From IMG/VR virus record IMGVR_UViG_3300002835_000013: DNA of 64,000 nucleotides; one strand, written 5' to 3'. This document shows positions 32,475 to 43,065 of the stretch, one piece after another. The notes beneath the pieces are model-generated. The model did not search any database, was not told the origin of the DNA, and was given only the letters and a program-made list of their open reading frames with translations. Both the position numbers and the translations under genes were made by a program. Within the stretch, counting starts at the first letter, position 1; each line of letters begins with the position of its first letter. The stretch is from a virus.

Positions 32475-33409
32475 TTTACCTCACACTCAATCATGATTTC
32501 AGTTAGACAAGCAACCAGATTTAGTTCTTGGTCAGCAACAAACGCTGCCTGATACTGATACTTTGCCAGTGTAACAACAGCGGCAGGTATTGTTTCTGGC
32601 TTTAGATACTCATACAGGTTATCATACACGGAACGATAAATGCGTGATGGATCAATGTCAGAGTTTAGCACAACCCACTTACGCATAGCGGTAAAGTCTT
32701 TACCCTTTAGTGCTTTGATTAGATCGTCAAGGCTGCGAACGCTGTCAAGTTGAGCAGCAAGACCAGCATCAATGCTTCCAGAAACAGAATACCGTTGTAG
32801 TTCATTGAGAGTCCTACGATAGTCTGGAAAATACTTTTCAACAACCTTGACAAGGACTTGCTTATCATATTCAACACCTTCATCATTTAGGATTTGCTGT
32901 AGCCGCTTGAACATCTTCGAGGCCATGGAAGGTCTCTCGGTATTCTTCAAGGTAAAGTCAACGACGGAACATCTAGAATGAATAGCGTCTTTGATCTTTG
33001 CCTTGAAGTTACATGTGAAAATGAAAGAACAGTTGGACGAAAACTTTTCAATAACGCCTCTAAGAGCATCTTGCGTATCTGGTGTAAGACCGTCGGCTTC
33101 GTCTAGAATGATAACCTTACGACCACCAGTTAGCGATACGGTTGACGCATAACCCACAACCTTAGTTCTTAGAACATCGATACCTCTTTCTTCTGAGGAG
33201 TTGATGAAAAGATAGTTACAACCGATTTCATCACACATTGCCATAGCGGCTGTAGTTTTACCACAGCCAGCAGGACCTGATAGGAGAAGATTTGGAATCT
33301 CTCCGTCTTTTACATACTGTAGAAACGTTTTCTTGATGCGGTCAGGAAGAACGCAATCCTCAACTTTGTGAGGACGATACTTCTCAACCCATAGAAATTC
33401 TTCACTCAT
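32471..33409 (-). CDS. gp44: clamp loader large subunit
   Basis: LWVEKYRP, GPAGCGKT, DEAD, SRC. Confidence 0.96.
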   Translation of the reverse strand: MSEEFLWVEKYRPHKVEDCVLPDRIKKTFLQYVKDGEIPNLLLSGPAGCGKTTAAMAMCDEIGCNYLFINSSEERGIDVLRTKVVGYASTVSLTGGRKVIILDEADGLTPDTQDALRGVIEKFSSNCSFIFTCNFKAKIKDAIHSRCSVVDFTLKNTERPSMASKMFKRLQQILNDEGVEYDKQVLVKVVEKYFPDYRRTLNELQRYSVSGSIDAGLAAQLDSVRSLDDLIKALKGKDFTAMRKWVVLNSDIDPSRIYRSVYDNLYEYLKPETIPAAVVTLAKYQYQAAFVADQELNLVACLTEIMIECEVK

Positions 33410-33560
33410 TCATTGTCCTCATATCGCATAGCATTCATATACATTATAATAGAGATTAGAAGGAAAGGCAACCAATGATTGATATCGTTGTGATCAACAA
33501 TCCAAAAATACATTGCCAAGATAAAGTCTATTGCTCCCATAATCTCAAAGATTAGTGCCA

Positions 33561-33857
33561 TCATGGTCCTGTCTTCCTCAAAACTTCATCATAGAAGGAT
33601 TCAAACTGATTGTTCTCTTCCACTTCATCATTGAAGTTGGCCTTGAAATATACCTTGGCGAGACGACGGATCATCTTCTTATCAACACCGAGTTTATCAA
33701 ATGTCTCGTTGATAATCTCCTTCTGGAGATCACGCTCGGCACCAACACGGGTCATGGAGTCATTCATCTCCATGATTGCCTTGCGAAGCACCTTCTTGTC
33801 TTCTGGAGAAAGAGCCTCAACAGAAGTAGTCGCACTATTATGACCGATCATACCCAT
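33561..33857 (-). CDS. DsbA/GapR-like dsDNA-binding protein
   Basis: IGHNS start, coiled coil, LGVDKKMIRRLAK. Confidence 0.65.
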   Translation of the reverse strand: MGMIGHNSATTSVEALSPEDKKVLRKAIMEMNDSMTRVGAERDLQKEIINETFDKLGVDKKMIRRLAKVYFKANFNDEVEENNQFESFYDEVLRKTGP

Positions 33858-34015
33858 TAGTCCACCTCAATGATTGCCGAAGGATTTACACAATTGTTGG
33901 CGACAGGAACACCGCCAGCATCAAGACATTTCTTATTCCACTTTGTATCCATGATGATTAGATAGACCATCAAAATCGTCACTAGAGCCATAGGAACAAA
34001 AAAGAAACACTTCAT
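33857..34015 (-). CDS. small membrane protein, paralog B
   Basis: TM helix plus CLDAGGVPVANNCVNPSAI. Confidence 0.65.
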   Translation of the reverse strand: MKCFFFVPMALVTILMVYLIIMDTKWNKKCLDAGGVPVANNCVNPSAIIEVD

Positions 34016-34173
34016 TACTTTGTCTCCACGATTGCCGAAGGATTGATACAAGTGGTTCCTACTAGAACGCCACCAGCATCTTTACATTCCTCTTCCACAA
34101 CGCCAGCTCCATAAAACAAAACGAATATGAATGTGACAACGACACCTGCCAAGAAGTATAGAAATGATTTCAT
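34015..34173 (-). CDS. small membrane protein, paralog A (52 aa, not in ORF track)
   Basis: TM helix plus CKDAGGVLVGTTCINPSAI; TAATG coupling at both ends. Confidence 0.65.
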   Translation of the reverse strand: MKSFLYFLAGVVVTFIFVLFYGAGVVEEECKDAGGVLVGTTCINPSAIVETK

Positions 34174-34826
34174 TACTTTGTCTCCAGTGCGATGAAATAC
34201 TTTAGATTACCATTAGCATTCACAAACTTAGCAAAAGCACCTGCCTGAATCTCAACATTGTAATCATCAGGAAGCAACTTTAGATTTTCGGTCTTGAATG
34301 TGGCTGTGAAGTCTGAACCAGCATAGTCGCCAATCTTCATAACACCATCGTTAGATGTGTCGTTTGCCTTCTCATGAATCTTGAGAAGCAAAGTGCCTTC
34401 CTTGCCGACAACAGAAAGATTAGGTAGATTGATCATGGTTGCTACCTTTAGAAGTTTCTGTGAAGTAGCACTTGGTAGAGAGAACTTTGTGGTGATATCC
34501 TTGAGAACAAGTTCCTTATCTGGAGGAGTGATAACAAGATTGGTAGAACAACCACGATAGAAAACTGATAGTTCACCATCATTTAGAACAACCAGATTAT
34601 CACCAAATGAGATATCAGGATTCTTTAGAGTGGTAACGATACCTAGAAACTGATTTAGATCATAGATGCCAAACTCCTGCGGAATGTTATCTTCTAGAAT
34701 CGCTTCCACAAGAATAGACTTTTCAGGTGAGATTGTTTTCTGAACTGTTCCTGCCTTTAGAACGACTCCGCTATTGATGGATGCGAAGTTCTTTAGAACG
34801 GAAAGGGTATTTTCACTTAGCTTCAT
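34173..34826 (-). CDS. gp45: sliding clamp
   Basis: MKLSENTLSVLKNFASIN, FGIYDLNQFL, YFIALE. Confidence 0.96.
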   Translation of the reverse strand: MKLSENTLSVLKNFASINSGVVLKAGTVQKTISPEKSILVEAILEDNIPQEFGIYDLNQFLGIVTTLKNPDISFGDNLVVLNDGELSVFYRGCSTNLVITPPDKELVLKDITTKFSLPSATSQKLLKVATMINLPNLSVVGKEGTLLLKIHEKANDTSNDGVMKIGDYAGSDFTATFKTENLKLLPDDYNVEIQAGAFAKFVNANGNLKYFIALETK

Positions 34827-34838
34827 TATATGCTCCTG

Positions 34839-35432
34839 TTAGAGTGTATGCATCATTTTATATTCTTTTTCGAGACCTGTCAAGAGGTCTGAAACGCACA
34901 TTTTCAGTTCATCAATGTTCTTATCATTATGAATAGTCCTGTCCGGTTCATATGAGTTCCATGCTGTCTCTGAAATATGCATCGTGGAAAGTTGTTCAGG
35001 CGTAGGATCTTCTCCACGTTTGACACGAACAAGGACACCACCGGCACTCCGAACGAAATCAATTTCATTAGGAAAACGAACGTCGGATATAACCACGTCT
35101 TGATATCCAGCAATGCGTTTCTCTAATGCGGCAATCCAAATGTTATCCGCAATACCATGACGACATGCTTCGGTACCCATCTTCTGGAGAATGAGACGAG
35201 GAGTCACCTCATATCCAAACTTATGTGACCACCAAGGGTCAACCCTTTCACGAAATGCTCTTGATGCGTTTGAGTCTCCTTCTAGTAGACCACGAGGCCA
35301 TAGAAAGATAGATGCAACTGCATCCTTCAATGCGTCAGCAAAAGCAAACTGGTGATATCCATGGTGTCTCACAAGAATATCACCAACCGTGCCCTTGCCG
35401 GATCCAATGTACCCAACAAGACCTATGATCAT
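34839..35432 (-). CDS. gp1: deoxynucleoside monophosphate kinase
   Basis: GYIGSGKGT, FADALKD, LQKMGTE, ISDVRFPNE, HISE. Confidence 0.92.
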   Translation of the reverse strand: MIIGLVGYIGSGKGTVGDILVRHHGYHQFAFADALKDAVASIFLWPRGLLEGDSNASRAFRERVDPWWSHKFGYEVTPRLILQKMGTEACRHGIADNIWIAALEKRIAGYQDVVISDVRFPNEIDFVRSAGGVLVRVKRGEDPTPEQLSTMHISETAWNSYEPDRTIHNDKNIDELKMCVSDLLTGLEKEYKMMHTL

Positions 35433-36235
35433 CGTAGATTACCACTCAATGCTGCGACCGCTGGTAGATCACCTTGGAAGCCATATGTACCGACGTGGGT
35501 TGTCTTCATCCATGGACATAGCCAAACATGAAAGCCAATCTCACGGGCATACTGACAGAACATATAATCTTCCGAAAGATAACGATGTGACTTTGGATCA
35601 ATAACAGTATCAAAGAAAGCATGAATGTATCTTGAACCATCAAAGTTAGCCTGACCAACGTGATCTGGCTTATAATGAAGGTGTGGATATTCTTCCTGAA
35701 ACTTATCAAAAACTTCACGCTTGACCATCATGAAGCCTGTTCCAATCTCCATAACCTCAACAGGTTCCGTTACTCTAAAAGATGTTGTACCAGGAACCGG
35801 ATTGAAAACGAAATCGCCAGTAATCTGATCTAGATCACCTGGATTGAACTTCTCGTTATCAACATTACGCTTTACAGCATTCACAATGTTTGACCAGTTG
35901 ATTGACTTCTTTGGATATGGACCACCGATAATGTCACGGTCTAATGCCAATAGAGCAAGAATGTCCTGTGGATTATACTGAATATCGGAGTCGATGAATA
36001 GTAGGTGAGTGCAGCCTGATCTTAGAAACTCGTCAACCAGATAGTTTCTAGCACGGGTGATTAGCGACTCATTAAAGATAAAAGAAAAGCGGCACTCGAT
36101 GCCATACTGAATACATGTGGCTTGAAGGTCTAAACAAGCCTTAGCATAAAGTCCAAAACACTGACCGCCGTAACATGGGGTGGCAACGAATATTCTTTTC
36201 TTTCTTAGGTCTTCACTTGAAATTTTGATTTCCAT
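35429..36235 (-). CDS. glycosyltransferase-like conserved phage protein
   Basis: ATPCYGG, ESLITRARN, FIDSDI, LSEDYMFC. Confidence 0.8.
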   Translation of the reverse strand: MEIKISSEDLRKKRIFVATPCYGGQCFGLYAKACLDLQATCIQYGIECRFSFIFNESLITRARNYLVDEFLRSGCTHLLFIDSDIQYNPQDILALLALDRDIIGGPYPKKSINWSNIVNAVKRNVDNEKFNPGDLDQITGDFVFNPVPGTTSFRVTEPVEVMEIGTGFMMVKREVFDKFQEEYPHLHYKPDHVGQANFDGSRYIHAFFDTVIDPKSHRYLSEDYMFCQYAREIGFHVWLCPWMKTTHVGTYGFQGDLPAVAALSGNLR

Positions 36236-36306
36236 ATTGTTCTCCATACACGAATAGCGCAGGAGCAACTAAGCCCCTACGCTATTATATAGTTTAGTTT
36301 TTCGTA

Positions 36307-36528
36307 TTAGCCAGCAAAGCGATAGAAAGCAGTGCGGCGACCGTCTACGTCACGATAGTTTGTATAGATTGTGTAATACTCACGAAGATCATAAACACGC
36401 TTGGAAACATTCTCACGAGGAACACGGGCTAGTGAAGCAACCTTATCGGCAGTAACACCAGCACCAGTGTTATACTTGCGAAGAACGTTCTCAATCTTCT
36501 CAATCTGAGACTTACGATTAGTAGCCAT
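36307..36528 (-). CDS. small winged-helix DNA-binding protein
   Basis: GVTADKVASLARVPRENVSKRVYDLR helix-turn-helix pattern. Confidence 0.65.
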   Translation of the reverse strand: MATNRKSQIEKIENVLRKYNTGAGVTADKVASLARVPRENVSKRVYDLREYYTIYTNYRDVDGRRTAFYRFAG

Positions 36529-36553
36529 TATATATTTCTCCATTCAAAGTTTT

Positions 36554-36620
36554 TGATGCTGGTGGTCGTGAAAGGAAAGGACCCGTGTATAACCACCAGC
36601 ATCATTTTATTATACACGGG
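36554..36620 (-). ncRNA. hairpin/pseudoknot RNA with loop antisense to the cobS and cobT RBS
   Basis: 13-bp and 11-bp interleaved stems; CTTTCCTTTCACGA complementary to the mRNAs at 37917-37930 and 40221-40232. Confidence 0.65.
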
Positions 36621-36685
36621 CATTCATTATAGAGTCACAGCCATGCGACTCCGTTTTTGTCTATCTGTAAACCGTATTCATCTAT

Positions 36686-37909
36686 TCAGAAAGCAACTTC
36701 CTCACCAGTGATGGTTGCTTCCGGTTGCGGAACAGGTTGCGGATCAACGGTTTCATCGACTTTCTTATAGAGTTCCATAAACGCATTCTTAGTATCCACA
36801 TCAAAGCGGTTGAGACAAAGTTCTATAGCCTTCATACGGTTCTGATTAAAGATGGCAAATGCCTCGCAGATATGAACCAGACGGCGAGTGGAGATGATTT
36901 CAGACAAGGCACCTTCATAGAAGGACTTGCGAATAACATCTGCCCAAGTCACCAACTTCTCAACAAATTCGGCACTCTCGATACCAGAAGCACCAAGAAC
37001 ATTGTTGAGGATTTTGGTTTCAATCTTAGTCGAAGGATATTCCTGTTCCATCGTGATAGAGAAACGCTCAAGGAACGCTTCGTTCATAACGTTGGTGCCG
37101 ATAAAGCGACCATCGTCGGAACCCTTACCCTTGGTATTCGCCGTAGCAATAACGTTGAAACCATTTTCAGGATGGACAAGACGGTTAATCTTTTTGAGAT
37201 AAACAGACTTGCCTTCGAGAACAGGCTGGAGACACATTAGCTTATTGGAGCCAAGGTCAACTTCGTCCAGAAGAAGAATAGCACCACGCTGCATGGCAAC
37301 AATAACAGGACCATCCTGCCAGACAGTAGCACCATCGACAAGGCGGAAACCACCAATAAGATCATCTTCGTCGGTTTCAATAGTAATATTGACACGGACG
37401 CACTCACGCTTTTCAACGGCACAAACCTGTTCGACCATCATCGTCTTACCGTTACCAGAAAGACCAGTAACGTAAGCAGGATAAAACTTCTTAGACTTGA
37501 TGATAGAACGAACATCGCTAAAGTTACCGAACGGCACATAGCCATTCGCCTTTTCAGGCACTAGCGAAACCTCGGCAGAAGCAGAAGTGGAAGCCGCAGC
37601 CATAGCAATCGTAGAGGAAGGAGCCATAGCAACAACGGACTCAACAACAGGAATATCAGACTGGATCTTAGCAGTCTTACGAGGAGCAACCGTCTTTTCA
37701 GCAACGGGAGCAAGATTTACACCGTGATCGGTCAAAGCATAAACACCACGACCAACACGGAGAGAGGGATCTTTCACAAGCCAAGCAGGATAAATACCAT
37801 ACTTTTCGTGAATGGTCAAAATTTGCTGACGGGTGATTTCACGAATGGCACCAAACTCAAAGCGGACCTTGTCCAGAAACACAGAACGGTTATCGGTAGA
37901 TTTAGCCAT
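36686..37909 (-). CDS. cobS: CobS/MoxR-like AAA+ ATPase
   Basis: GLSGNGKT, ETDEDDLIGG, LLDEVD, ATANTKGKG, EAFLERF, ISTRRL. Confidence 0.93.
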   Translation of the reverse strand: MAKSTDNRSVFLDKVRFEFGAIREITRQQILTIHEKYGIYPAWLVKDPSLRVGRGVYALTDHGVNLAPVAEKTVAPRKTAKIQSDIPVVESVVAMAPSSTIAMAAASTSASAEVSLVPEKANGYVPFGNFSDVRSIIKSKKFYPAYVTGLSGNGKTMMVEQVCAVEKRECVRVNITIETDEDDLIGGFRLVDGATVWQDGPVIVAMQRGAILLLDEVDLGSNKLMCLQPVLEGKSVYLKKINRLVHPENGFNVIATANTKGKGSDDGRFIGTNVMNEAFLERFSITMEQEYPSTKIETKILNNVLGASGIESAEFVEKLVTWADVIRKSFYEGALSEIISTRRLVHICEAFAIFNQNRMKAIELCLNRFDVDTKNAFMELYKKVDETVDPQPVPQPEATITGEEVAF

Positions 37910-37946
37910 ATCGAAACTTTCCTTTCACGATTTTCGATTATGATGT

Positions 37947-37998
37947 ATTATACCACAAGGAAGGGATCTTGTCAACCCCTTCCTAAGTCTTTGATTTT
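37947..37998 (-). promoter_or_regulatory. sigma70 early promoter with upstream IHF-like site
   Basis: TTGACA-17-TATAAT; AATCAA-AGAC-TTA matches WATCAA-N4-TTR. Confidence 0.7.
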
Positions 37999-40216
37999 AC
38001 GCAATCTTCTTGGACTGTTGCGTAACGTTATTGATGAACTGACGCAGAAGGACACGATTGATGGACTTTTTAGCGGCAAACTTGGAGAATGCCTTGGCCA
38101 TGGATTTCGTGGACTTTGTATTGTCGATTTCCAATTCGTTCTCCGTTTCACGAAGAACATTGGAATTGATCACATAATATTCATCATAACCTTCATTCTT
38201 GACTGGATAGAACTTGTTTTCTTTCCAGAACTTGACAACCTTTTCGACGTAGTGATAGTTGGTACCATCATTCATACCAAAGCGAGACAAGAACCGTTTG
38301 ATGTTGGAATCAGACAGAAAGAAACCAATCAGATTACAATCAGTCTGATCCTTTAGCATCTTTAGAAACTTGTTAGTGGTGTTTGCACCATCACCCCAAC
38401 CGTAAAGGCTGATATCGTAAGTCTTACCAGAAGACTTATCAACATACTTATACATAACCTTACGACCAGGTTGAACACCGGTACAATTTTTGATACCACC
38501 AAGACCGTTTGACTCACCATCGGTAAGGAAAATAGTGTTGACGATTTCCAACTTATGTTTGGCACGGAAGTCGTTGATAATCTTAGGAGCAAGAATAACT
38601 GCCTCATTGAGAGGCGTGCCACCGAGACCATCAGTATAAAGACGACTATGACCACCAACCATAGAAAGAAACGTCATAGCCTCGTTTAGTTCCGCAAGAG
38701 TCATCTTGGAAGATAGAAACTGGCGAAGCACCACGTTACCAAGACCAATAACATTCTCTTTACCAAGATAAGAGAATGGATTTTCAGCACCAGAATCCTT
38801 GAAGGCATACACCTCGAACGGCACTTGGATCTGCTTACAAAACAGAACCAGAGTAAACAACTGCCGAAGAGTATACTTCAGGTTTCTATCCATAGAACCA
38901 GACCAATCAAGAAACATGATAAAGCCATGGTTCTTGCCTTCCGGCACTGTAGTCAACCGACGGAAGATATCATCATTGAACTTGTAAGAGTGGAGTTTAT
39001 TAGTGTCAATAACACCAGTCTTAGCCACAGAAATGCGAGAATACATTTCCGCAGCCTTGCGCTGCTCAAACTCTTTTACAAGAAACGAAATGCTATCTTT
39101 TTCTTTTTGACGCCACTGGTTGAAAGCGGCACGACCTTCTTCAAAGGTCTTCTTAGAAAAGTGTCCGTAGTAACCAGCGCCAACCAGACGACGCCAATCA
39201 CTAAGAACTCGCTTATAATCGTGAATAGCCTTGTCCCAGTTTACATCAGGAAGGGTGACATAGACATAATCGGTATTATCGTCTTTGACTAGTTCCTGAA
39301 CTTTTTCTTCCCAAACACGGTCAGTATAAGACTCGGGAGCCTTGATTTCATCGGAACTGGCACCAGCACCATCAGAGGTATTACCAGAACCATTATCACC
39401 GATATCACCTTCGCCCTTTACAGCGTCGGATTTACCTTCACCTTCGTCACCTTCACCGTCTTCGGCATCTTCTTCGGAATCATCACCATCAAGGTCACCA
39501 TCCCAATCGTCAGCATCATCGGAAAAATCGTCAATGTCATAGGAGTCTCCTTTGTCTCCATCTTCGCTTTCGCCAAGACCGAGGTCGTTATGAATATCGT
39601 TTTCAATCTTATCTTTACAAAAACGATACACCTTCTCGGCAACTTCCACAACCTCTGCGAAAGTTTCAATATTTTCAATCTGCTTTAGAAGCACTCGCTC
39701 TTCGGGAGTAAACTCAATATTGAGATTGATGTTACCACCCTTGAAGTAGACATTGACACGGTCGATAAAGTTCATAGAATTGATATCACGACCCTTCGTG
39801 CCGAAGAAGTCACGGTCAATAAGTTCTTTATAACCAGCGAGATAGTTACGACGAAGACCAGGATAACGGCGCTTCTGGCGCTTGTCAATACGGACATCTT
39901 CGATAACATTAACGAAGCCCTGGACGGTGCGCTTTAGCTGATCGCTAACTTCGGAACCGAATACACGATTAGCAATATCCTCATATGCCTTTTTATACTC
40001 TTCGCCTGAAGGCGTATCAATAGCATGAGCCGTTTCGTGACCGATAAGCAAATGCTCAAGATCCTGCGAAATATCATGCCACATAGGCAGCATAAGAACA
40101 CGGTTCTTGAGGTCGAACATAGCGGTTTTGATACCGCTCTTATGCTGAACAGTAATGTTCTCGGTCGCCAACAGCTTGGCAAGAAGCGAGTTGGAATTTA
40201 CGGTCATTGCGGTCAT
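37997..40216 (-). CDS. CobT-like HExxH peptidase / VWA-domain protein
   Basis: LAKLLATENI, GHETAH, NVIEDVRI, MIDAS DWSGSM, GGTPL, LTDGE. Confidence 0.9.
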   Translation of the reverse strand: MTAMTVNSNSLLAKLLATENITVQHKSGIKTAMFDLKNRVLMLPMWHDISQDLEHLLIGHETAHAIDTPSGEEYKKAYEDIANRVFGSEVSDQLKRTVQGFVNVIEDVRIDKRQKRRYPGLRRNYLAGYKELIDRDFFGTKGRDINSMNFIDRVNVYFKGGNINLNIEFTPEERVLLKQIENIETFAEVVEVAEKVYRFCKDKIENDIHNDLGLGESEDGDKGDSYDIDDFSDDADDWDGDLDGDDSEEDAEDGEGDEGEGKSDAVKGEGDIGDNGSGNTSDGAGASSDEIKAPESYTDRVWEEKVQELVKDDNTDYVYVTLPDVNWDKAIHDYKRVLSDWRRLVGAGYYGHFSKKTFEEGRAAFNQWRQKEKDSISFLVKEFEQRKAAEMYSRISVAKTGVIDTNKLHSYKFNDDIFRRLTTVPEGKNHGFIMFLDWSGSMDRNLKYTLRQLFTLVLFCKQIQVPFEVYAFKDSGAENPFSYLGKENVIGLGNVVLRQFLSSKMTLAELNEAMTFLSMVGGHSRLYTDGLGGTPLNEAVILAPKIINDFRAKHKLEIVNTIFLTDGESNGLGGIKNCTGVQPGRKVMYKYVDKSSGKTYDISLYGWGDGANTTNKFLKMLKDQTDCNLIGFFLSDSNIKRFLSRFGMNDGTNYHYVEKVVKFWKENKFYPVKNEGYDEYYVINSNVLRETENELEIDNTKSTKSMAKAFSKFAAKKSINRVLLRQFINNVTQQSKKIA

Positions 40217-40428
40217 AGTGTTCCTTTCACGATTTTCACAAGTATAGCAAAACCGGTCGCATTTGTCAAGTCATAACAAAAACAACGACTTATGAGGTCA
40301 TTGTCTTGATGAGTTTGTAAACAACGTATGCCAGAAATGGAAATAATGCCAAGTGGATGATATGTTCCCATTGTGATTGTAAACTGTAGAAATCAAAATA
40401 ATGTGCGGTAGGCGTAAATGTCACGATG

Positions 40429-41331
40429 TTATCCTCTAAAGTTAGTTTCCAGTCTCATACCGTAGTTATTGATTCCTTTCGGTATCACAACATCTTTCTT
40501 GTAAATGAGTTGGTTCTTTTTGAACGGTGAATAATCCACATAATGATGCCAGCGTCCATACTTGAACACCATTCTAGCAACATCTGGGTGTAAGTCAACC
40601 AACATTTTTGATTTGTTCCAAGTGCCTTCTGGATTCAGTTGTCCGTCACGCCACTTTTCCTTATCAAGATCGCCTTCGACATGATAAAACTCTTGTGTAT
40701 TACCACCTTTGACAGTTTGTGTGGCACATTTACCTTGCATGAAGGCATTGAACTGAATGGTGCAATCACCATCTTTCAATACACGAAGGCAAATATCTGT
40801 ATCTTCGTTATAACGACCACGCCAACGATGCTCACAATCGTTGCGGATCAATAGAGTTGAATAGATACGGGTGTTAGCAACGAAAGGAGGATACTTGCTA
40901 TTAGGCGCAATAAAGAACCGATATTGAAAGCCAGAGATAGGAACATTCTCATAACGATCAACAAACTCTTCCGCAGCACGAAAGATGGCACCAGACTCCA
41001 CACGAATACGCTTGTTTCTATGAAGACGATAAAAGTCTGAAATGTTATCGTCTAGAACCCAATGTGCCTTGGCACCAATAGAGATAGAATGATCCCATGC
41101 CCAGTTTCTGGCACGACCAGGACCATCACCATGATTAGAGAAAGGAGCCACAAGGAGAGTAACGTAAGGACGAATGCCAAAATGATCTAAGGCATATTCG
41201 TAGTTTTCTTCGTCTTGTGGCTCAATCACAATAGAATGTGGCACCTTCATTCTCGCCAGAGACTTGGAGGTGATCATACTTTCATGTCTGCCTTTAGAAA
41301 CAATATAAACAGGATAAATTGGATTAGTCAT
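40429..41331 (-). CDS. TET-associated/GREB1-like glycosyltransferase (possible DNA-base modifier)
   Basis: YIVSKGR, ARNWAWDHS, WVLDDNI, RYNEDTD, KGGNT. Confidence 0.75.
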   Translation of the reverse strand: MTNPIYPVYIVSKGRHESMITSKSLARMKVPHSIVIEPQDEENYEYALDHFGIRPYVTLLVAPFSNHGDGPGRARNWAWDHSISIGAKAHWVLDDNISDFYRLHRNKRIRVESGAIFRAAEEFVDRYENVPISGFQYRFFIAPNSKYPPFVANTRIYSTLLIRNDCEHRWRGRYNEDTDICLRVLKDGDCTIQFNAFMQGKCATQTVKGGNTQEFYHVEGDLDKEKWRDGQLNPEGTWNKSKMLVDLHPDVARMVFKYGRWHHYVDYSPFKKNQLIYKKDVVIPKGINNYGMRLETNFRG

Positions 41332-41332
41332 T

Positions 41333-42022
41333 TTACTTCACACAATAAACAATGTTCACCCAGGCAGCCTTAGTGTCGGCTCTAGCAGTCACAGAACTAA
41401 AGTGTCCTCGGAGCAAATCTAAAATCTCATTATACTTTTCATGTGTATCAATATCATTCAAATGAGCATGATGAAATTCCATAATGAACTCTCTTACACC
41501 ATCAAAGGTCTTTAGTGCCTTCAAGCATTCATACTCACCACCTTCAATATCCATCTTGATAATGGTTGGACGGTAATCTTCTATCACTTTGTTGATGTTG
41601 ATACAAGGTACCTGTGTCACATCTCTACCTCGCTTATGAATTAGAGAATGAGCGCCCTTGTTCTTTTTGACATTGATAGAAAACTCTCTTGTAGGATCAT
41701 CATTACCAATAACAGCTAGATTATACAACTCATAACGAGATTTGTCAAATTCATTCAGTTCCATGTTGCGACAAGCTAGTTCATAGTTCTCCGCATCGGC
41801 TTCATATGAATAAACTTTCTTAGCACCTTTCTTGAGAGCAAAGGCAGTGAACATACCAATATTCAAACCAAAATCTAGAATAACATCGTCACTGGTAATC
41901 TTCAATTTGTTGTATTCGCCAGAGAAAACTTCCTTGACAACAAAAGCATCGGACGTGCCTTTTCTAACAAATGCTTTTACATCTTTAAAGGTAACTTCTT
42001 CAATAATATCTTCACTACTCAT
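41333..42022 (-). CDS. FkbM-family methyltransferase
   Basis: LDFGLNIGMF, YEAD, KMDIEGGEY, MEFH. Confidence 0.88.
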   Translation of the reverse strand: MSSEDIIEEVTFKDVKAFVRKGTSDAFVVKEVFSGEYNKLKITSDDVILDFGLNIGMFTAFALKKGAKKVYSYEADAENYELACRNMELNEFDKSRYELYNLAVIGNDDPTREFSINVKKNKGAHSLIHKRGRDVTQVPCININKVIEDYRPTIIKMDIEGGEYECLKALKTFDGVREFIMEFHHAHLNDIDTHEKYNEILDLLRGHFSSVTARADTKAAWVNIVYCVK

Positions 42023-42360
42023 TACTCGTCCTCCACCCATCTCAATAGACTGTTAGCTTCTCTATCTAGCTTAGGATGCCAAATGCTCTTTGTCTTCTCA
42101 GATAGGTTCTGACCGATTAGAGTGGCAAACTCCTCATAATCTTCTTTGGTGCGAAAAGATACAATAATTCTTTTGTATGGAGGATTATCTTCCTGAACAA
42201 ACTCAGGCATGCCTACCCAATGTTTCTTCCATAACTTTTCTTCAATATCTCTAACAGCTTCTTCACCAAGAAAGGCGCTTAGAGTGCCGTCTTCAAACTC
42301 TTTTACATCCAAACAGTTTTCATATTGTGTAGTTTCATCAATCTTTGGTTTCTTCGCCAT
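42022..42360 (-). CDS. conserved hypothetical protein
   Basis: WVGMPEF...TKSIWHP motif; coupled to the methyltransferase gene. Confidence 0.7.
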   Translation of the reverse strand: MAKKPKIDETTQYENCLDVKEFEDGTLSAFLGEEAVRDIEEKLWKKHWVGMPEFVQEDNPPYKRIIVSFRTKEDYEEFATLIGQNLSEKTKSIWHPKLDREANSLLRWVEDE

Positions 42361-42831
42361 TCTCTACTCCATAAAGCAATTCAAATGCTCCTTCCGGAAA
42401 TGTCTTACCAGGTTCCTGACCAACCAATGTTACAACTCCTGCCACACTTAGCATCTTATCTATAACATATGTCTCACCAAAAAGCAAGTCACGATTTACA
42501 TATAGAAAATCCTTTTTCACTCTTACAACATCGCCAGACTTGAACGGCGAAAAGTTCTCTCTCACTTCCATCTTTCCTTAATCTCTTTTACTCTTTCTTC
42601 CAGATATCCACGGATGATCGTCATTTCATTTGTTTGTTCGCAATTCACTTTAATGTGATTGCGTAATTCAAAATCAAAGGCAGTCATCAACATCCAATCG
42701 TGTGAATATGAATGTGTTTTGTGTGGATCAGTTTTTTCCATACTGTTTACTCCAGAGATAGTTGTTTAGATATACAACGAATGTTGCCACTCGATCCATA
42801 AACCAACTATTCCAGAACCAATGATTGTATC

Positions 42832-43065
42832 TCATAGAATGATTCCTTTTGATACCAGGCCAGTAACATAAATGACACTAATGACTGCCTGAATAACCAT
42901 TAGTGACTTTTTCTTCCACATATATCCTACAGCAAACCATCCGATGTTACCTACAAACTGAACAGCAAGGTTTAGAGGATACACATTCCAAGCAGTTAAA
43001 ACGGCGCCAATGATAACCAGTGCCGTTGAAGTCCATTCTAGAAAGAACTCATAGTCAAATTTCAT
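42832..43065 (-). CDS. small three-TM membrane protein
   Basis: YPLN motif and hydrophobic helices. Confidence 0.7.
   Translation of the reverse strand: MKFDYEFFLEWTSTALVIIGAVLTAWNVYPLNLAVQFVGNIGWFAVGYMWKKKSLMVIQAVISVIYVTGLVSKGIIL

Follow-up and report, generated by a model that had tools for sequence, protein, structure and literature searches.

Post-transcriptional control in T4-like phages is ascribed to proteins such as RegA, RegB and gp32, and to our knowledge base-pairing RNA regulators are barely known in this group. In phages P1 and P7, the C4 RNA shares an operon with its targets, is cut from the leader that precedes them, and carries two short pairing elements; in Staphylococcus aureus, the 5' and 3' untranslated regions of the icaR mRNA are joined by pairing with the Shine-Dalgarno (SD) sequence, while the 5' pseudoknot of the T4 gene 32 mRNA is an autoregulatory operator. 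Here we analyse an intergenic RNA element in a stretch of 64,000 nucleotides (hereafter the window) from the IMG/VR virus record IMGVR_UViG_3300002835_000013, where a cobT-like gene, a cobS-like gene and a gene for a winged-helix protein of 73 amino acids follow one another on the minus strand. The element, which lies between the last two genes, consists of two interleaved, covarying helices and recurs in a large clade of related phages.

The closest described counterparts are the promoter-early stem-loop (PeSL) cassettes of T4-type phages. PeSLs combine a strong sigma-70 promoter with a stem-loop over the -10 box or between the -35 and -10 boxes, they end in an SD sequence and a start codon, and their stem-loops act as terminators (Arbiol et al. 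2010, PMC2839356; Comeau et al. 2014, PMC4122927), termination by RB49 PeSLs having been demonstrated with a reporter assay (PMC2839356). Our locus, likewise from a T4-type phage, has sigma-70-like early promoters, which are strong for the cobS-like (12/12) and cobT-like (11/12) genes and weaker for the small gene (10/12). A stem-loop covers the -10 box in the small-gene promoter and surrounds the -35 box in that of the cobS-like gene, the cassettes finish with an SD sequence and a start codon at the 3' end, and similar ones are repeated in one genome. It differs in that a second, interleaved helix confers a pseudoknot topology and in that a conserved linker resembles an anti-SD sequence, neither of which is described for PeSLs in the accessible text of PMC2839356 and PMC4122927; moreover, the cassettes studied here flank conserved genes and not ORFans in hyperplastic regions. 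We consider it reasonably probable (about 0.6) that the element is a PeSL-like terminator-promoter cassette, extended by the second helix, which controls the winged-helix gene.

A first-pass annotation of the window had pointed to a 13-bp stem downstream of the cobS-like gene. The stem is present: its arms at 36554-36566 and 36592-36604 form 12 bp plus a T-A pair common to both helices of the element, and they enclose a loop of 25 nt that contains TCGTGAAAGGAAAG at 36566-36579, the RNA of the minus strand carrying the complement. The stem forms when the minus-strand RNA is folded (z = -3.5 versus shuffled sequences). In an alignment of 25 distinct close relatives (A1), this helix, b/b', is paired in 99% of the cells and five of its pairs exhibit double compensatory changes. 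The other helix, a/a', exhibits a C-G to U-A double change in six relatives as well as G.U pairs, with further changes in distant clades and in relatives of the L035 type (L numbers denote the related loci). For both helices together, 99.5% of the cells are paired and six pairs are changed on both sides, compared with pairing of only 28-45% in controls with a slid partner. The 15 G.U cells are consistent with minus-strand (gene-sense) RNA only, hence the stem is an RNA helix of that strand. A plus-strand reading, in which the stem followed by T's resembles a terminator and an RBS-like (ribosome-binding-site-like) motif is accompanied by a 15-codon GTG frame, was rejected because no promoter was called on that strand, because conservation of the T-run is lacking, and because A.C mismatches would take the place of the G.U pairs.

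In the RNA, the segments are arranged in the order a, b, a', linker, b', SD, so that two interleaved helices, each with covariation, form the arrangement of an H-type pseudoknot; the predicted loop lengths of 5-7, 0-1 and 14-16 nt look possible sterically. The same order recurs with unrelated sequences in more than 20 subgroups, with more than 20 different b/b' sequence pairs, among the roughly 150 related IMG/VR loci over which the element was compared (80 loci retrieved by the cobS-like protein, at 63-93% identity, and 80 around a distant member, these 160 coming from roughly 600 or more in IMG/VR). In distant relatives, a hairpin of 12-15 bp stands right after the cobS-like stop codon and adjoins or overlaps the promoter, in some cases between its -35 and -10 boxes; it is followed in most of them by a U-rich tail and then by a segment of 5-9 nt that pairs with the hairpin loop, with the SD of the small gene 7-14 nt beyond this segment. 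The -10 box of the small-gene promoter is found inside helix a, or directly before it, in all groups. The p-values of an automatic helix finder are weak for individual sequences, so the argument rests on recurrence across subgroups; the same program mislabelled the close clade because b/b' is stronger there than a/a'. Since the topology recurs in more than 20 versions unrelated in sequence, it represents a real, uncatalogued RNA element, and we are highly confident that a structured RNA cassette precedes the winged-helix gene. A search of positions 33000-43000, on both strands and with E-values up to 1, against Rfam (cmscan) returned only a chance match to a small nucleolar RNA elsewhere in the region. 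What emerges is an intergenic RNA element of wide conservation, not represented in Rfam, with more than 20 covarying versions in a large clade of uncultivated freshwater or environmental myoviruses.

One nested clade has an insert of about 72 nt in the a'-b' linker, which resembles a tRNA and ends in CCA (L042:5284-5355, L044:2347-2418, L037, L038, L039), with b/b' bracketing a' together with the tRNA-like unit; in two of these loci ARAGORN reports it as a tRNA whose anticodon loop is odd, and in the other three the program misses it.

As to the roles of the two helices, helix a/a' comes after the stop codon of the cobS-like gene and covers the -10 box of the small-gene promoter. It would be the PeSL-type stem-loop, and we infer that it terminates or attenuates transcripts that arrive from the cobS-like gene. 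Helix b/b' connects the a/a' loop with a segment immediately 5' of the small-gene SD. In read-through RNA both helices may form an H-type pseudoknot, while RNA started at the internal promoter would lack a, leaving b/b' as a putative 5'-terminal hairpin; in either form the element would most likely set termination, stability or translation of the winged-helix mRNA. The CU-rich tract between a' and b' is a single-stranded linker in the position of a terminator tail or of pseudoknot loop 3. In the distant relatives the linker, directly after the hairpin of 12-15 bp, is a typical U-rich tail, in support of these roles. However, several observations weigh against these roles. The tract is far more conserved than a terminator tail requires, and it is C-rich rather than U-rich. 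Helix a/a' of the window, with a stem of 11 bp and a tail with 7 U in 12 positions, was not called by a simple terminator scan, because its loop has 17 nt. Half of the close relatives have no -35 box for the internal promoter, and so a/a' cannot be a strong terminator in them if the small gene is expressed. Finally, the tRNA-like insert of the nested clade sits badly with a tight pseudoknot.

The arrangement also resembles the T4 gene 32 mRNA, in that a pseudoknot-type 5' leader belongs to a gene for a nucleic acid-binding protein and leads into unstructured A/U-rich sequence that reaches to the RBS. The two are unrelated in sequence, however, and the protein encoded here is a winged helix of 73 amino acids, not a single-stranded DNA-binding protein; autoregulation by this protein, by analogy with gene 32, would be pure conjecture. 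The first-pass annotation had taken its gene for a helix-turn-helix (HTH) gene, and this agrees with the AlphaFold model (pLDDT 86.5; three helices followed by a beta hairpin), for which Foldseek finds winged helices of MarR, ArsR and TFE (TM 0.6-0.7), and with matches of other family members to HTH_11, MarR_2 and TrmB. Searches with the protein among GenBank phages and PDB sequences revealed no homologue, so its identification as a plain, DNA-binding-type winged helix comes from the predicted fold.

The linker tract is the part of the element on which the first-pass annotation had built its central proposal, a trans-acting antisense RNA that would shut off the cobS-like and cobT-like genes together. 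Reading of the sequence bears out the complementarity: the minus strand at 37917-37930, in the cobS-like leader, has the same 14-mer as the stem loop, its first 12 nt recur at 40221-40232 in the cobT-like leader, and both matches cover the SD. A search of the 64 kb with the 12-mer retrieves exactly these three copies; with at most one mismatch 0.46 copies are expected, and 2 of 100 shuffles reach three. The predicted duplexes of the tract have energies of -22.3 to -22.6 kcal/mol with the cobS-like leader and -21.8 kcal/mol with the cobT-like leader, and in a duplex scan of the whole window (background -6.6 +/- 3.0 kcal/mol) the two leaders are the best partners located at an RBS. Co-folding gave small energy differences that were left unused, as it cannot model loop-loop contacts. 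Pairing of the tract in cis with the SD of the small gene itself was set aside, being weak (only -8.8 kcal/mol). The second-best duplex partner of the tract, a two-part match within the coding sequence of a deoxynucleoside monophosphate (dNMP) kinase (35226-35255, minus strand; -25.2 kcal/mol), is probably due to chance.

Both partners are strongly conserved. The 12-nt core of the tract, CTTTCCTTTCAC, is invariant or nearly so in A1, and its complement in the leaders, GTGAAAGGAA, is invariant in the 25 relatives, whereas the neighbouring stem varies. In individual tract-bearing genomes the cobS-like leader is matched perfectly over 7-15 nt and the cobT-like leader over 8-14 nt; L005 is the only one with less than 9 nt for both leaders, and there a C-to-T change of the tract preserves the pairing as a G.U wobble. 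In predicted structures the tract is mostly unpaired, within a large loop, and the cobS-like SD is presented in a hairpin loop. The tract could be a working anti-SD regulator, which would pair over about 10-14 nt with the SDs of both genes and lower their translation and stability together, either in trans, from the leader of the winged-helix mRNA, or over a long range in cis, from cobS-like or polycistronic read-through RNA, cis action being just as likely as trans. We regard this as possible, though somewhat doubtful. In favour of it, pyrimidine-rich 8-mers resembling anti-SD sequences have been shown experimentally to repress an RBS in Bacillus subtilis in cis from hundreds of nucleotides away (Gill et al. 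2025; PMC12697547).

The two leaders have 17 identical nucleotides, as the first-pass annotation had stated (37919-37935 and 40221-40237), and each follows a sigma-70 promoter of its own, both with the TG extension. In the cobS-like leader the CATAAT side pairs with the start-codon region, so that the SD lies in the loop and the ATG at the base of the stem, directly adjoining it; the sequence of this stem differs among relatives while the pairing is kept by covariation. The same is true of the arms of the PeSL-like hairpin at 37958-37984. Early leaders are built to one pattern, comprising a -10 box, about 5 nt, CATAAT, a few nucleotides, GAAAGGA and ATG (37910-37946; L082, L084, L085; L003:1260-1312). 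In four full-length relatives, used for genome-wide counts, GAAAGGA occurs at 7-16 RBS-like sites per genome, many of them behind TTGACA promoters and a CATAAT box, and all extra copies of the 9-mer GTGAAAGGA are at RBS positions. The two leaders fit PeSL-like early promoter-leader cassettes with the strong SD, GAAAGGA, common in the clade; since this cassette is found at many RBS sites, the 17-nt identity reflects a stereotyped cassette rather than a dedicated operator.

This bears on the other alternative that had been put forward, namely that the three copies of the motif are DNA operators through which the winged-helix protein would repress the cobT-like and cobS-like promoters and its own. 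Its merits are that the protein is of a DNA-binding type and that all three copies lie downstream of promoter -10 boxes. However, the motif keeps an SD-like spacing to the start codon, whereas its distance from the -10 box varies widely (3, 11 and 33 nt here, 4-10 nt in other genes), which makes a DNA operator unlikely. The third copy has the opposite orientation although the motif is no palindrome, extra copies in relatives stand at RBS sites without a promoter (L081, L083), and the variant in L005 breaks the identity of the motif yet keeps the RNA pairing. A more plausible operator would be the inverted repeat of a/a' that covers the -10 box, but its G.U variants indicate pairing of RNA. Altogether, we consider shared operators very improbable.

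The comparison of relatives gives mixed evidence on the pairing. In the tree of the cobS-like protein, the close relatives without the tract form a single well-supported clade nested among those that have it, which implies that the tract was lost or replaced once; it is absent also from the distant relatives. Within the tract-less clade the GTG of the cobS-like leader has changed at least three times and that of the cobT-like leader once, whereas no cobS-like leader has changed its GTG over about 2.7 substitutions per site of tract-bearing tree. By our estimate, the probability of all three cobS-like changes falling in the tract-less part by chance is about 0.02, and this drift after the loss of the tract hints, at the level of sequence comparison, at a constraint imposed by pairing. 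Among 40 RBS-like GAAAGGA sites of tract-bearing genomes, 11 have GT directly before the motif, compared with none of 10 in one tract-less genome; the idea of a regulon that this suggests was set aside (estimated Fisher p about 0.09, with the two leaders counted in every genome). On the other hand, there is no clean compensatory covariation of tract and leaders, which the first-pass annotation had named as a check: the only tract variant with a matching leader change is that of L015, while those of L023, L026 and L071, the variants at the 3' end of the tract in the L023 type, L022 and L011, and the change in L005 are not followed by the leaders. Moreover, the TC flank of the cobS-like leader is freely variable, the motif of the leaders is present also at other early RBS sites and persists in tract-less relatives (L052 and the L035 type), L059 has changed b and b' together with its leader unchanged, and about 20 other subgroups keep the element without complementarity to the leaders. 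All three promoters are of the early type, so regulation of this kind has no obvious logic of timing. What stands of the proposed joint shut-off is that complementarity is kept in every tract-bearing close relative; against it, the leaders have the common SD of the clade, and in most relatives the element occurs without complementarity to them.

Complementarity of a different sequence is found in L047, L053, L060 and L075, where the partner of b' in the hairpin loop could pair equally, through 9-11 complementary nt, with the SD-ATG stretch of the cobS-like gene (L053:5170-5290; AAGTGACCGAA type), and this also speaks for anti-SD action. L059, L055 and L051 are without the loop-to-leader complementarity of the L053 subgroup.

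A third possibility is that a pyrimidine-rich terminator tail met a purine-rich SD by compositional accident, that the match was extended to 12-14 nt by chance in the ancestor of the clade, and that it has persisted through slow evolution of the whole intergenic region. In the close clade, the conservation of the a/a' arms equals that of the tract, any tail of the CCTTTC type gives a match of 7 nt to GAAAGGA, some distant relatives have a tail, CTTTTCACAC, that can be aligned with the 3' half of the tract and ends in TTTCAC, and the finding was selected after the fact. Yet loop 1 and the spacer after b' vary freely in A1, while the unpaired tract does not, constraint on the GTG is confined to relatives that have the tract, and a match of 14 nt adjacent to the gene in question is improbable by chance: the probability that, in 64 kb, one of the RBSs finds a complement of 12-14 nt in the loop of an intergenic hairpin is, on a rough estimate, 0.003-0.05, the two leader matches not being independent because the leaders have the motif in common. 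We think such an accident unlikely. In the reading that we prefer, a PeSL-like cassette with a second helix, the tract is complementary to the leader SDs because it is anti-SD-like, and its pairing with the leaders would be a possible add-on function in this clade. The fuller version, in which the pseudoknot or hairpin scaffold carries an anti-SD riboregulator that pairs with the hairpin-displayed cobS-like SD and with the cobT-like leader, and so makes the output of the AAA+/VWA pair depend on transcription of the regulator gene that follows, is doubtful.

Compared with the known antisense systems, the tract resembles C4 in being a short single-stranded stretch of phage RNA complementary to an RBS (here over 14 and 12 nt), with a proposed block of translation. 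The likeness to P1 C4 claimed by the first-pass annotation breaks down on other points: there is one tract, it stands 3' of the two proposed targets, signals for processing are not evident and Rfam gives no match, so the element is not a member of the C4 family. Other parallels are icaR and the B. subtilis cases, where a pyrimidine-rich, anti-SD-like motif downstream of an open reading frame (ORF) is complementary to the SD of that gene; here, however, the tract matches the leader of a neighbouring gene as well and is part of a conserved structured element. If the tract works as an anti-SD, a PeSL-type cassette can gain a riboregulatory function, and the locus would be a natural example of the repression by distant anti-SD sequences that has recently been measured in bacteria; the scaffold would then be a new class of cis-regulatory RNA, perhaps bound by the winged-helix protein. 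If it does not, the locus is a warning that pyrimidine-rich terminator tails often look antisense to purine-rich SDs.

Table 1. Features of the cobT-like/cobS-like/winged-helix locus (positions in the window)
Feature	Position	Strand	Remarks
Winged-helix gene, 73 aa	36307-36528	-	73 aa at 36310-36528; SD GGAG 9 nt upstream of ATG at 36528
Helix b', RNA 3' arm of stem	36554-36566	-	Ends about 11 nt before small-gene SD
CU-rich anti-SD-like tract (X)	36566-36581	-	Linker between a' and b'; terminator-tail or pseudoknot loop-3 position
Helix a', 3' arm of first helix	36582-36592	-	Pairs with 36610-36620, 11 bp
Helix b, RNA 5' arm of stem	36592-36604	-	Pairs with 36554-36566; covariation in 25 distinct relatives
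Small-gene sigma-70-like promoter	36609-36638	-	10/12, weaker
Helix a, 5' arm	36610-36620	-	Includes -10 box (36609-36614) of small-gene promoter
cobS-like AAA+ gene (MoxR/CbbQ type), 407 aa	36686-37909	-	Pfam AAA_5 and CbbQ_C; phrog_249
cobS-like leader hairpin, 7 bp	37910-37938	-	37932-37938 pairs with 37910-37916; SD motif in 15-nt loop
cobS-like early promoter	37947-37975	-	12/12 with TG; conserved in relatives
PeSL-like hairpin 3' of cobT-like gene	37958-37984	-	-35 box of cobS-like promoter in loop
cobT-like large partner gene, 739 aa, phage annotation 'peptidase'	37997-40216	-	phrog_459 (E 5e-190), weak phrog_5298
cobT-like leader, common 17-mer including SD	40221-40237	-	Identical to 37919-37935
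cobT-like early promoter	40241-40269	-	11/12 with TG; conserved

The coordinates of the locus are collected in Table 1. The order of the three genes is kept in nearly all relatives, the small gene being syntenic in 74 of the 80 loci retrieved by the cobS-like protein. A Pfam scan of the cobT-like protein gave no match. No close phage was found in GenBank, where cyanomyoviruses are 68-73% identical over the cobS-like part only; the neighbouring genes for a gp45 sliding clamp, the dNMP kinase and a TET-associated glycosyltransferase (TAGT) identify the phage as T4-like. The small-gene promoter has a perfect TTGACA-17-TATAAT in several relatives and is without the -35 box in others. The SD of the small gene, GGAG, is embedded in a conserved ATGGAGAAA (36529-36545) and is of another type than the GAAAGGA of the neighbouring genes; in T4, RegB targets GGAG in the SDs of early genes. 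On the minus strand at 40429-42360, immediately upstream of the cobT-like gene, the TAGT (E 9e-46), an FkbM-type methyltransferase and a small ORF stand in a row, which may be a DNA hypermodification cassette.

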